A DNA stretch of 64,000 nucleotides from Candidatus Peribacteria bacterium (GTDB lineage Bacteria > Patescibacteriota > Gracilibacteria > UBA1369 > 2-02-FULL-48-14), in assembly GCA_943349825.1 (NCBI GenBank), contig CALQZQ010000004.1:51866-115865 (forward strand). The letters run 5' to 3'. A program made the position numbers and the translations under genes. Shown piece by piece: positions 10,763 through 13,814 of the stretch. The notes under the pieces were generated by a model. It saw only the letters and a list, made by a program, of their open reading frames with translations. It did no database searches and had not been told where the DNA came from. Each line of letters opens with the position of its first letter. The first letter of the stretch is position 1.

Positions 10763-11388
10763 TGCGAACCGCACCCGCAGGCATCGCCGGATTTCTTTTC
10801 TCCAGTGGAGCAGCCACAGGAGCCTCCGCCGTTGCCCCCACAGCCACAGCCGCCGGCTTTCTTTACGAAGTTGGGATTGGTGATTTTGAAGCCGCTGCCG
10901 TAGGCCGTTTCCAGGAAGTCGACTTCGGCGCCGAGTAAGTTGGCGAAGGATTCTTTGTCCATGTAGATGGAGACCCCGTGGAATTCGGCGGTTTTATCCC
11001 CCTTGGCGGCTTTGTCCAAGAAGTCCATGCCGTACGTGGGTTCTTTGCCCCCATTGTCTTTCGCGGTGATTTTGAGGCCCCAGCCTTCTTTATCTTCGGC
11101 TTTGGCGAATTCGCGGATTTTTTCGGCGGCGGCGGAGGTCAGGTAAATGCCGTCGTCTGGAGCTTTGCGGCGGGTTAAGGCCAGGTCGTTGATGCGAGCG
11201 ATCATGTCGTCCACCACTTCTTCAGTGAGGCCGTGAGACATGGCACCCATCTTCAAAGGTTCAAACACATTCACGCTGCAAGAGGTGCAGTGCAGGCCGA
11301 AATCCTTCATGATTTCATCGGAACCCGGAACGAGTTGCATCACTTCGCCTACGAGCATGTCTCCGGTAACGAGGGGTTTCTTGGTCAT
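10759..11388 (-). CDS. DUF1858-like redox-disulfide domain fused to a HesB/IscA-like Fe-S carrier domain, with a Cys/Gly-rich tail
   Basis: The N-terminal GLHCTSCSVNVFEPLKMGAMSHGL is DUF1858-like. The middle GLKITAKD...FKITNPN is IscA-like. The C-terminal tail is GGCGCGGNGGGSCGCSTGEKKSGDACGCGSH. Confidence 0.65.
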   Translation of the reverse strand: MTKKPLVTGDMLVGEVMQLVPGSDEIMKDFGLHCTSCSVNVFEPLKMGAMSHGLTEEVVDDMIARINDLALTRRKAPDDGIYLTSAAAEKIREFAKAEDKEGWGLKITAKDNGGKEPTYGMDFLDKAAKGDKTAEFHGVSIYMDKESFANLLGAEVDFLETAYGSGFKITNPNFVKKAGGCGCGGNGGGSCGCSTGEKKSGDACGCGSH

Positions 11389-11390
11389 GA

Positions 11391-11762
11391 TTATTTTAAG
11401 AGTTGGGTATCAATGTACACCATTGCGAGGGCGAGCAGAAGCCCGAAGAAGCCGAACATGGGAAGGCGATCTTCTTTAGCCCAACGTACTTTCCACGCGA
11501 CGAGGGAAGGGGAAAGGTGGCTGAGGCCTTTGAGGGCGATGAGAGCTCCGAGCCAAGAGAGCACGCTGTCCCAGCTCCAAGCGAATTTTACTGTGCTGGT
11601 GCTGAAAATGAGTAAAGCCAGCATCATGGGGCCGACGGCACTCAGGAATTGCAAACCTGAGGAATTGCCCCACTCTTTTAAGGTTTTTGCCATGCTCGAG
11701 GGATTCAGGACCATTTTTAAACAGATCGGAAGAACGAAGAGAGCGAGTAGGGTGAGAGACAT
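11391..11762 (-). CDS. small membrane protein
   Basis: A 123-aa ORF with 3-4 hydrophobic segments. Its stop lies 2 nt from the start of the downstream gene. Confidence 0.55.
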   Translation of the reverse strand: MSLTLLALFVLPICLKMVLNPSSMAKTLKEWGNSSGLQFLSAVGPMMLALLIFSTSTVKFAWSWDSVLSWLGALIALKGLSHLSPSLVAWKVRWAKEDRLPMFGFFGLLLALAMVYIDTQLLK

Positions 11763-11820
11763 AGGCGTGGAGTTAAAAAGCGTAGCTTTGTTTTACTCCA
11801 AAACCGAGAAAATCACAATA

Positions 11821-12086
11821 ACGTGAATCTTGAAACCCTCATTCGCTCTAAGGGACCTACACACTTCTGAAGCGGGAGCGAAGGCACTCGGATGCATGAT
11901 CCTCGTACCTTCTTCCTTAAGGTTTGTGCTTCAAAAGTGTGTAGGTCCCAAACCGAAAGAGAGTTTGAAATCCCATAATAGAAAAAAGTTGGTGTATCTT
12001 TTGGGAAGCATCAATCATGAACTTTCTCAGAGCGCTCCATGCTGAGCGGAAGATACACCAACTTCTATTGGTTTCAAGATTCACGT
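11821..12086. other. 266-nt multi-hairpin element closed by a 17-bp perfect stem (candidate structured RNA or MITE-like element)
   Basis: ACGTGAATCTTGAAACC (11821-11837) pairs with GGTTTCAAGATTCACGT (12070-12086). Inner hairpin A pairs 11851-11873 with 11928-11949 (one mismatch). Inner hairpin B pairs 11987-12000 with 12050-12064. Confidence 0.6.
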
Positions 12087-12088
12087 TT

Positions 12089-12391
12089 CTAGTCTTCGTC
12101 GGCGCCTTCTTTAACGCTTTCTTCCATCTCATCGATGCTTTCGGTGAGTTCTTCCATTTGAGTTTCGATAGCGCCTTGCATTTCTTCCCAACTTTCGTCG
12201 TCGGCCTGTTCCATTTCGTCCAGGCTCATTTTGCAATCTTCCGCTTCGCGGCGAACATTGTTGAGATCTTCCGTGATGGCATCGTTCTCGTCGTTTTCCA
12301 TGCTGCTGATTTTTTCTTCGAGTTCATCGATGCGTTCATCCAAAGCTTCGAGTTCTTCGCGGAGCTTATCCATGATGTCAGAGCGGTCCAT
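12089..12391 (-). CDS. acidic coiled-coil protein
   Basis: A 100-aa ORF rich in Glu and Asp (EELEALDERIDELEEKISSMEND...). Confidence 0.5.
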   Translation of the reverse strand: MDRSDIMDKLREELEALDERIDELEEKISSMENDENDAITEDLNNVRREAEDCKMSLDEMEQADDESWEEMQGAIETQMEELTESIDEMEESVKEGADED

Positions 12392-12402
12392 GAGTGAAAG
12401 GG

Positions 12403-13629
12403 TTAACTTTTAAGCGGTTTCGAACGGAAATATATCACAAAGATTCCTGCTGCCAAGAGAATTAATCCGGCGGCGGTCCATGTGGGGAGATTTTGATCGA
12501 TGTTCACCAGGAAACCTGCGAGCAGTGGAGGCACGGCTTGCCCCAGAGCGCGGAGCGATTGCGTTATGCCCATGGCTTCGCCTTGTTCGTTGGGGCTGCA
12601 GAGATTAGAAAGCACCGCGGTTTCGTTGGGGAAGCAAAGCCCTTCGGCAATGGCCATGAAGGGTTGAATGAGGAAGAGCCCGGCTATGCCGCTGGGAAGG
12701 GTGATGGCAAAGAGTGTGAGGCTGAGGGCCACGAGGGCGTAGGGCAGGATTTTGGCAGGTGCGAAATGGCGAGAGACGATGCGAGTGACAAAGCCTTGAG
12801 CGAAGGCGATCCAGATTCCGATGTAAGCGAAAATAGTGCCGATTTGCGCTTCTGGGCTGTGGAATTTATCCACGAGAAAAACGGGAAAGAATTGAGTGAA
12901 GAAACAGAATCCAATCGAATGGAGAAAAATCACCAAGAAAATGGTGCGGAGTTTGTGGCGGCTCCAGGCTTTGCGCAGGTGCGTGAAGCCAATGAAAGGA
13001 TGTACGGCCCTAGTGGTTTTTTCTTGGAGCGTTTCATCAAACCAGAAAGAGATGAAGAACAGGTTGAAGAGGGAGAGTGCCGCGGCGAAGCAAAAAGGAA
13101 TGGTGGGGTTGAACCAAGAAACGAGAGAGGAATCGGAGAAGATTCCGCCTAAGAAGGGCCCAATGATGAAGCCAAAGCCAAAGGCCATGCCGATGAGGCC
13201 AAAGTTTTTGGCGCGGTTTTGAGGGGTGCTCGTGTCGGCGATGGCGGAACTGGCCACGGCGATGTTTCCGCCGGTGAATCCGTCTAGCGCGCGGCTGACA
13301 TAAAGCAGCCAGAGTTGCTGCGTGAGCAGACCGTAGGCAAAGAGTAGGTAGCCGAGCATGGTTCCGAAGAGGGAGGCCTGGAGTAGGGGTTTGCGTCCGT
13401 AGCGGTCGGAGAGGGTGCCGAGTACCGGGGCTCCAAAGAATTGAGCGATGGGGTAGGCGGCGATCAAGAGTCCGAGGGCGATGTTGCGTGTTTGTTCGCT
13501 CCAGGCGGCGGGTGCGATGAGGCTGGCCGGATCTTTCATCAGCGGGGCGAGTACGGGAATCAAAATGCCCACACCGATCAGGTCTAGGAGGATAATGAGG
13601 AAGAGAATGAGGAGCTTGTGTTTTTTCAT
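12403..13629 (-). CDS. MFS transporter (drug:H+ antiporter-like)
   Basis: Has about 12 hydrophobic segments and the MFS motif A GTLSDRYGRKPLL. Confidence 0.85.
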   Translation of the reverse strand: MKKHKLLILFLIILLDLIGVGILIPVLAPLMKDPASLIAPAAWSEQTRNIALGLLIAAYPIAQFFGAPVLGTLSDRYGRKPLLQASLFGTMLGYLLFAYGLLTQQLWLLYVSRALDGFTGGNIAVASSAIADTSTPQNRAKNFGLIGMAFGFGFIIGPFLGGIFSDSSLVSWFNPTIPFCFAAALSLFNLFFISFWFDETLQEKTTRAVHPFIGFTHLRKAWSRHKLRTIFLVIFLHSIGFCFFTQFFPVFLVDKFHSPEAQIGTIFAYIGIWIAFAQGFVTRIVSRHFAPAKILPYALVALSLTLFAITLPSGIAGLFLIQPFMAIAEGLCFPNETAVLSNLCSPNEQGEAMGITQSLRALGQAVPPLLAGFLVNIDQNLPTWTAAGLILLAAGIFVIYFRSKPLKS

Positions 13630-13650: not shown

Positions 13651-13814
13651 AGAGGGTATTTAAAAAGTCATTTCCTATTACAATGTTAGAATTTTGGCTC
13701 CAACTGCGTCACTCCTCCTCGACGTATCTCTACCGATACGTTTTCGTCGTCGGTCCTTGTTTCGCTCAAAATGCTAAACCTTTCATTACGAAAATGACTT
13801 TTTAAATACCCTCT
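13651..13814. repeat. 23-bp perfect inverted repeat flanking 118 bp in a divergent promoter region
   Basis: AGAGGGTATTTAAAAAGTCATTT (13651-13673) pairs with AAATGACTTTTTAAATACCCTCT (13792-13814). The interior has further imperfect pairing (ACGTATC/GATACGT, CGACG/CGTCG). Confidence 0.7.

Follow-up and report, generated by a model that had tools for sequence, protein, structure and literature searches.

The window, the whole stretch of 64,000 nucleotides that was analysed, lies on contig C4 of the source genome (G000), an assembly of 1.25 Mb in 12 contigs with about 50% G+C that belongs to an uncultivated member of Candidatus Peribacteria in the Candidate Phyla Radiation. It contains an intergenic element of 266 nt flanked by two genes encoded on the minus strand. 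The upstream neighbour (12089–12391) encodes an acidic coiled-coil protein of 100 aa, with no Pfam match on record, and ends in a TAG stop codon. The downstream neighbour (11391–11762) encodes a membrane protein of 123 aa and is followed by a DUF1858-IscA gene. The distances given in an earlier note on this DNA hold: between the element and the acidic-protein stop codon there are 1–2 nt, and the membrane-protein gene starts 58 nt away on the other side.

The element is closed by a perfect helix between 11821–11837 and 12070–12086, as the earlier note had described, and an extra pair (11820 with 12087) extends this helix to 18 bp. Its two strands constitute the left ((A)ACGTGAATCTTGAAACC, 11820–11837) and right (GGTTTCAAGATTCACGT(T), 12070–12087) terminal inverted repeats (TIRs), which form a perfect 18-bp inverted repeat. 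Inside the closing helix, hairpin module A (11852–11949, plus strand) starts with a variable stem, P1, in which 11852–11873 pairs with 11928–11949 over 22 nt with a single C/A mismatch. This stem carries a conserved apex (11874–11927) comprising the segment GGGAGCG (11874–11880), the P3 helix (11880–11887 with 11905–11912, according to structure A2), the GGAT-GCATG-ATCC hairpin (11890–11902), the segment CTTCC (11912–11916) and a bulge on the 3' side (11917–11927). The two apical stems claimed for this arm, GAAGG(CAC)/(GTA)CCTTC and GGAT-GCATG-ATCC, are both found in the sequence. A central linker (11950–11985, read from alignments) contains an internal end-like copy, GAGAGTTTGAAATCCCA (11959–11975), and an alternative pairing of this end-like sequence (GAGAGTTTGAAATYCCA) with the right end is possible. 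The second arm, hairpin module B (11986–12064, minus strand), pairs 11986–12000 with 12050–12064, in agreement with the pairing first proposed. A promoter-like sequence (TTGAAA-16-TATCTT) can be seen on the minus strand at 12050–12077, in the right end and the arm-B stem and facing inward; its second hexamer falls within the variable stem, and the site is therefore not conserved in other copies.

Folding of the element gave minimum free energies of −129.3 kcal/mol for the minus strand (z = −13.1) and −122.3 kcal/mol for the plus strand (z = −11.0), and none of 200 shuffled sequences was as stable as the 266-nt element on either strand. The structure of the window element is not due to chance. 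Two internal open reading frames (ORFs), at 11830–12045 on the plus strand and 11917–12132 on the minus strand, are present as previously listed, and they are all that speaks for reading the locus as a chance cluster of hairpins, an ordinary intrinsic terminator or a small coding sequence. Such a reading is extremely improbable in view of the z scores of −11 to −13 and of 12 homologous copies in the same genome. No terminator-like site (a stem followed by a T run, or U tract in the transcript) was found in 11300–12500, and an intrinsic terminator was rejected. A coding role was likewise rejected, since other copies carry frameshifts or interruptions in these ORFs (for example ATG AAC TTT CTC TGA in C5:35828) and the length of the apical loop differs by 1 nt between genera.

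Searches of the source genome with BLAST and with an nhmmer profile retrieved 12 copies of the element and one solo left end, spread across six contigs, all copies being intergenic and the family representing about 0.3% of the genome. Identity to the window copy ranges from 68 to 84%, and copies compared with one another reach up to 90%. Four of them are full-length (305–308 bp, about 307 bp), against 266 bp for the window copy. Two others are deletion derivatives, one with module A only between both ends (C2:44837–45007), its breakpoint placed at the end-like repeat of the linker, and one with module B only (C3:107343–107541); the remaining copies are truncated or degenerate. The TIRs are 16–18 bp long, with the ends taken as A[C/T]GTGAATC...GATTCAC[G/A]T, and their 16-nt core ACGTGAATCTTGAAAC and its complement are invariant among the full-length copies, in which the interior diverges. 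The flanks beyond the closing helix vary between copies. The earlier note had suggested that multiple copies in the genome would favour a MITE, and the 12 dispersed copies do so. Its further proposal, that many identical copies flanked by target-site duplications would make the element an ordinary MITE, is borne out by half: the copies are dispersed, and direct repeats flank several of the others (see below), but identity is 68–90%, with compensatory changes in the stems.

An exact look-up of the acidic protein gave, besides the source assembly, an independent assembly from the same population, Logan contig ERR3719144_188309 (L063, 1.66 kb), which stops 71 nt past the acidic-protein gene, within the element; the assembly breaks at this point because the element is a repeat, and the family as a whole breaks short-read assemblies. 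Another TIR-bounded element occurs in the window at 13651–13814, in the divergent MFS/trmB spacer, with a 23-bp perfect inverted repeat (AGAGGGTATTTAAAAAGTCATTT) whose arms are 118 bp apart. Its ends are unrelated to those of the 266-nt element, so that at least two MITE-like families are present in this small genome. On contig C1 (about 95640–95760) a solitary hairpin module (E = 2e-10 with the covariance model R1 described below) lies between divergent genes, with its own 18-bp stem GGTTCCTAAGAGAGGGTG and an apex variant, GGGAGCGGGAAAGGACGGATCATGATTCGTCC, and represents a second sub-family within the source genome.

The covariance model R1, built from arm A of 18 copies, matches module A of the window copy at 11866–11934 (91 bits, E = 4.5e-30). 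In full-length copies it also matches arm B on the opposite strand, which identifies this arm as an inverted version of arm A that has diverged. The complete element thus consists of a TIR, module A, a linker, the inverted module B and a second TIR, and reading either strand gives one forward module and then one reverse module. Because of this inverted build, either DNA strand, or a transcript entering from either side, folds into the closing helix with two long arms. The earlier note, in proposing a three-way junction, had missed this relationship, in which arm B of the window copy is an inverted version of arm A that has diverged and been partly deleted. The module-B apex of this copy is 25 nt short, the junction lying between 12014 and 12015 (in alignment A4, the 25 gap columns occur in no row other than that of the window copy), and R1 gives no match to module B of this copy. 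At the level of the alignment, this demonstrates that the window copy lost these nucleotides after its insertion. The inner CTCAG/CTGAG stem attributed to arm B does exist, but as a by-product of the 25-nt deletion, and the pairing conserved across the family is a different one.

A closer inspection of the modules revealed a near-perfectly paired stem of 20–28 bp, different in sequence in each copy, within a module length of 100–130 nt. The apex on top of this stem is asymmetric and reads GGGAG-C-GAAGGNAC-TC-GGAT(G)CATGATCC-TC-GTNCCTTC-TTCC, followed by a 3' bulge of about 10 nt. Over three families of the order this 45-nt apex is near-invariant, and the stems are unalignable yet paired. Among 58 distinct modules, 89% of cells are paired, against 67% in shuffles and 40–57% in slid controls; double-sided changes occur at 20 of the 23 pairs and the covariation score is 0.54 versus 0.16. 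Compensatory pairs are also found among six full-length composites (25 of 104). In helix P2, two G.U pairs are kept when the modules are read forward, one in 54 of the 58 modules and the other in 34 of 58 with A-U in a further 14.

Comparison with Rfam at permissive E-values, using the window element and six variants from other genomes, yielded only sub-threshold matches to microRNA hairpins, far below the gathering scores, so that the Infernal/Rfam check recommended in the earlier note identifies no known RNA family. No description of the hairpin module family was found in the literature, including the Peribacteria genome paper (PMC4736985), nor of MITE- or REP-like repeats in Candidate Phyla Radiation genomes. 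The hairpin module is an undescribed, structure-conserved family.

The R1 model matched 19 of 28 genomes of the source family, belonging to 10 of its 11 genera, with at least 15 matches in G009 and at least 23 in G042. Two further families of the order contain the module as well, and G074 gives at least 36 matches; these counts are lower bounds, as a subset of the first-look candidates was scored. Among 201 sampled genomes of the class, none that belongs to another order gave a module. Inside the order it is absent from most genomes and from four of the five sampled congeners of the source genome, the fifth (G001) having three matches. In other genera the same apex is carried on wholly different stems, and the modules are arranged as solitary hairpins (L025, L026, G074), as two adjacent hairpins (G009) or as a composite closed by TIRs (G000, G020, L029). 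The solitary modules of G074 have no obvious TIR beyond the stem; at four loci (L336, L337, L349 and L352) the stem is followed by a conserved unpaired 3' tail, (T/C)AAAATATCCTCAAAAA, which makes the unit there asymmetric beyond the hairpin.

One spacer, behind an 82%-identical gene of 411 aa, is occupied in both G009 (L071) and G043 (L038). Its hairpin 2 bears the complete apex in G009 and is 43 nt shorter in G043, in a version that equals other G009 copies, which suggests either that copies have undergone gene conversion or that the site was hit by more than one insertion. The spacer was therefore set aside as evidence for in-situ compensatory evolution, given that the two sites hold different hairpin 2 variants and that gene conversion or re-insertion is possible.

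The orthologous spacers, whose comparison the earlier note had proposed, revealed the same gene pair in four congeners (G005, G001, G002 and G004), separated by 45–90 nt and with no element in between. The G005 sequence aligns downstream of the insertion point. Judged by sequence comparison, these empty sites demonstrate that the element inserted 1–2 nt past the acidic-protein stop codon, and did so after the split from the sampled congeners. No composite copy was found in same-genus genomes. A genome of a different genus (G020) holds a copy 83% identical to C2:170165, as close as the source-genome copies are to each other. Vertical neutral descent cannot explain this distribution, given the 83%-identical copy in G020 and the same-genus genomes without composites.

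Of the seven copies that have both ends, five are flanked by direct repeats of 5–6 bp (a raw count). They lie exactly at the ends in C2:184857 (TAGCG) and in the G020 copy (GTTTG, L015), and with a 1-nt offset on the left side in C2:170165 (TAGTT), C1:71229 (TATTTT) and C2:44837 (CTAAA). No duplication is recognisable at the window copy, in line with what had been observed before, nor at C5:35828; comparison of the window insertion with the empty G005 site, whose flanks have diverged, allows a duplication of 0–3 nt. The family is small, non-coding, multi-copy and dispersed, has TIRs, and is present or absent at orthologous sites, as MITEs are.

The 266-nt element is therefore best explained, with good though not full confidence, as a worn copy of a non-autonomous, MITE-like composite of about 307 bp, bounded by TIRs and specific to Peribacterales, that was inserted behind a stop codon in this lineage. 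Among the options offered in the earlier note, the mobile one (MITE) is the one supported, by the dispersed copies, the TIRs, the putative duplications at other copies and the empty orthologous spacers. A regulator dedicated to this gene pair is not supported, since relatives with the same pair lack the element and the other copies follow unrelated genes. In the MITE-like scenario the composite would have been moved in trans by a transposase of the cut-and-paste type producing 5-bp target duplications, and the duplication of the window copy would have decayed. The stems may have been kept paired either because a folded single strand (RNA or ssDNA) was needed for spread or because insertions were tolerated only when stable. 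The window element would be co-transcribed with the acidic-protein gene. At most, it may supply a very stable RNA structure at the 3' end or between cistrons, as a barrier to exonucleases or read-through or as a hindrance to terminating ribosomes; any RNA role of this copy is putative.

The searches for a mobilising enzyme covered three protein families, DDE_Tnp_1, Y1_Tnp and rve, none of which was found in G000, G009 or G020; Y1_Tnp (PF01797) is also absent from G074. In the source genome no TIR pair is more than about 310 bp apart and no pair of copies encloses an ORF. Viral contigs yielded no apex motif and only single chance matches to a 14-mer of the TIR. A scan of metagenomes with the 16-nt TIR gave at least 120 single chance matches, and nhmmer found no element among the matches listed. 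As these searches retrieved no autonomous partner with the same ends, the transposase is hypothetical, and the copies in G000 are probably relics that can no longer move. The three families are abundant only in G004, a complete same-genus genome with about 18 DDE_Tnp_1, 18 Y1_Tnp and 22 rve matches and no hairpin modules.

Besides the failure to find an autonomous partner and the lack of a recognisable duplication at the window copy and at C5:35828, two observations stand against the MITE-like explanation. Classical MITEs have conserved ends, whereas across genera and families it is the internal apex of these modules that is conserved, and not the stems or ends. Conservation of the apex rather than of the ends points to selection on something besides the binding of a transposase at the ends. 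In addition, the solitary modules of G009 and G074 are biased towards the G-rich strand (see below), which a cut-and-paste DDE mechanism does not predict.

Selection on the apex would be accounted for if the module were a functional RNA signal of the 3' untranslated or intercistronic region, read by a protein or RNase specific to Peribacterales and kept by the host, with mobility explaining its spread only. The near-invariance of the apex in three families above stems that cannot be aligned and still pair argues for this possibility, as do the two conserved G.U pairs of P2. The gene context is also favourable. Ten of the 12 source-genome copies touch or nearly touch a flanking stop codon (offsets of −9 to +5 nt) and the G009 hairpins start directly at the TAG or TAA of the upstream gene. 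In relatives, 55 modules were examined, and for some 34 of them a co-oriented ORF ends at most 100 nt from the core, mostly at most 60 nt, a distance within the stem length. Modules in these relatives are enriched in spacers between convergent genes and rare in divergent, promoter-containing spacers, and the spacer shared by G009 and G043 is occupied in two species.

On the other side, a signal kept by the host is difficult to reconcile with its absence from most of the order and from four of five sampled congeners, and with the empty orthologous site. The genes upstream of the source-genome copies are unrelated to each other, and the two copies away from stop codons lie between divergent gene starts. 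In the window copy, the apex that is of the forward type on the transcribed strand is the very one that was deleted. The variable stems, read in the forward orientation, contain more A.C than G.U mismatches (32 versus 17), a comparison confounded by strong GC skew. The same skew confounds the relation between folding and transcription, in which the better-folding strand is the transcribed one in five of seven clear cases and the other two disagree. The fixed G.U pairs in P2 favour a folded forward strand, RNA or ssDNA, with GC skew again as a confounding factor. Taken together, an RNA signal of this kind appears unlikely.

A further possibility is that the module acts as DNA, as a folded single strand or a cruciform handled at replication and copied in a strand-specific manner, with no transposase of the TIR and target-duplication type. 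This would resemble REP/RAYT systems, palindromic elements derived from IS200/IS605 and integron attC sites. Consistent with it are the long, near-perfect stems, the palindromic CATG/TCATGA centres of the apices and the solitary G074 modules, which have an unpaired 3' tail and show no obvious TIR outside the stem. Orientation relative to the G-rich strand also points in this direction, the solitary modules being co-oriented with it in 10 of 11 cases in G009, 16 of 19 in G074:C1 and 6 of 8 in G074:C2, although these counts come from a search that scored a subset of candidates; in G000, gene orientation is independent of GC skew. Template switching within quasipalindromes could also preserve the complementarity of the arms with no selection on RNA. 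Such correction would nevertheless tend to erase the P2 G.T pairs, which persist. Furthermore, no Y1/HUH transposase was found in G000, G009, G020 or G074, and the composites of G000 and G020 carry TIRs and putative 5-bp duplications. A mechanism confined to DNA is thus quite improbable.

In G009, all 12 sampled 3-kb loci (L069–L080), which extend from 15 kb to 1.23 Mb of a single contig of 1.31 Mb, show zero or positive GC skew on the plus strand. This is not expected from two equal replichores and could reflect unusual replication, an assembly effect or a sampling bias introduced by choosing loci through their modules.

The broader proposal that the module is a functional signal, either an RNA element of 3' ends or a folded ssDNA, read by a Peribacterales-specific protein and spread in a strand-specific manner outside the known transposase families, is regarded as speculative and rather unlikely. 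If this were true, the Candidate Phyla Radiation would contain structured mobile modules of a new class. Genomes of this group are tiny and usually described as poor in mobile DNA. Positioned on stop codons, the repeats can change mRNA ends, read-through within operons and the C-termini of proteins. The inverse of the normal MITE conservation, together with the strand bias and the lack of a recognisable transposase, makes the family a tractable case for the spread of structured repeats, and for their readers, in organisms not yet cultivated. For annotation, the R1 covariance model flags these regions and averts spurious calls of small ORFs.

With respect to known systems, the element may work most like the Correia elements, ERIC and REP/BIME. 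Correia elements, known from Neisseria (CREE/NEMIS), are non-coding, TIR-bounded repeats of about 100–160 bp, dispersed and adjacent to genes, co-transcribed with them and folding into long hairpins. The Peribacteria element (about 300 bp) is similarly small, TIR-bounded, dispersed, non-coding, placed beside genes, with which it would be co-transcribed, and provided with long hairpins. Correia elements, however, generate a TA duplication, have 26-bp TIRs and lack a conserved internal apex, whereas the Peribacteria element shows putative 5–6-bp duplications, TIRs of 16–18 bp with an unrelated sequence, the build of an inverted dimer and an apex conserved across families.

In the REP/BIME systems of enterobacteria and pseudomonads, a REP sequence that closely follows a stop codon can influence both the stability of the mRNA and the termination of translation. 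The Peribacteria modules share with REP/BIME the character of extragenic palindromes conserved in structure, often in inverted pairs, located at gene 3' ends and biased in orientation. They differ in size, REP units being 20–40 nt long and the Peribacteria modules 100–130 nt with stems of 20–28 bp. REP/BIME are associated with a RAYT (Y1/HUH) gene, which none of G000, G009, G020 and G074 has, and the TIRs and putative target duplications of the Peribacteria composite are not found in REPs. Derivatives of IS200/IS605 are alike in their hairpin-rich ends, their strand-biased insertion and the frequent lack of the transposase in the same genome; unlike the Peribacteria element, which has TIRs and putative duplications in genomes where Y1 is absent, they have neither TIRs nor target duplications and need Y1.

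The comparison was extended to ERIC/IRU, the pneumococcal BOX/RUP/SPRITE repeats (PMC3049150), the QMITEs of Coxiella (PMC5896051), MITEAba12 (PMC6382973) and the Rickettsia palindromic elements. Like the Peribacteria element, these are non-autonomous, multi-copy and intergenic or at gene ends, in small or host-restricted genomes, and some of them supply RNA structures or extend ORFs. No sequence relation to any of them was found, and none was found reported from the Candidate Phyla Radiation. Their TIRs are conserved and match a known IS; no such IS was found for the Peribacteria element. The window copy alone is an ordinary, decayed member of its family. What sets the family apart from all these systems is the combination of a fixed apex with stems that are free to change yet paired, variable ends, the inverted-dimer build, the position at stop codons and the strand bias.
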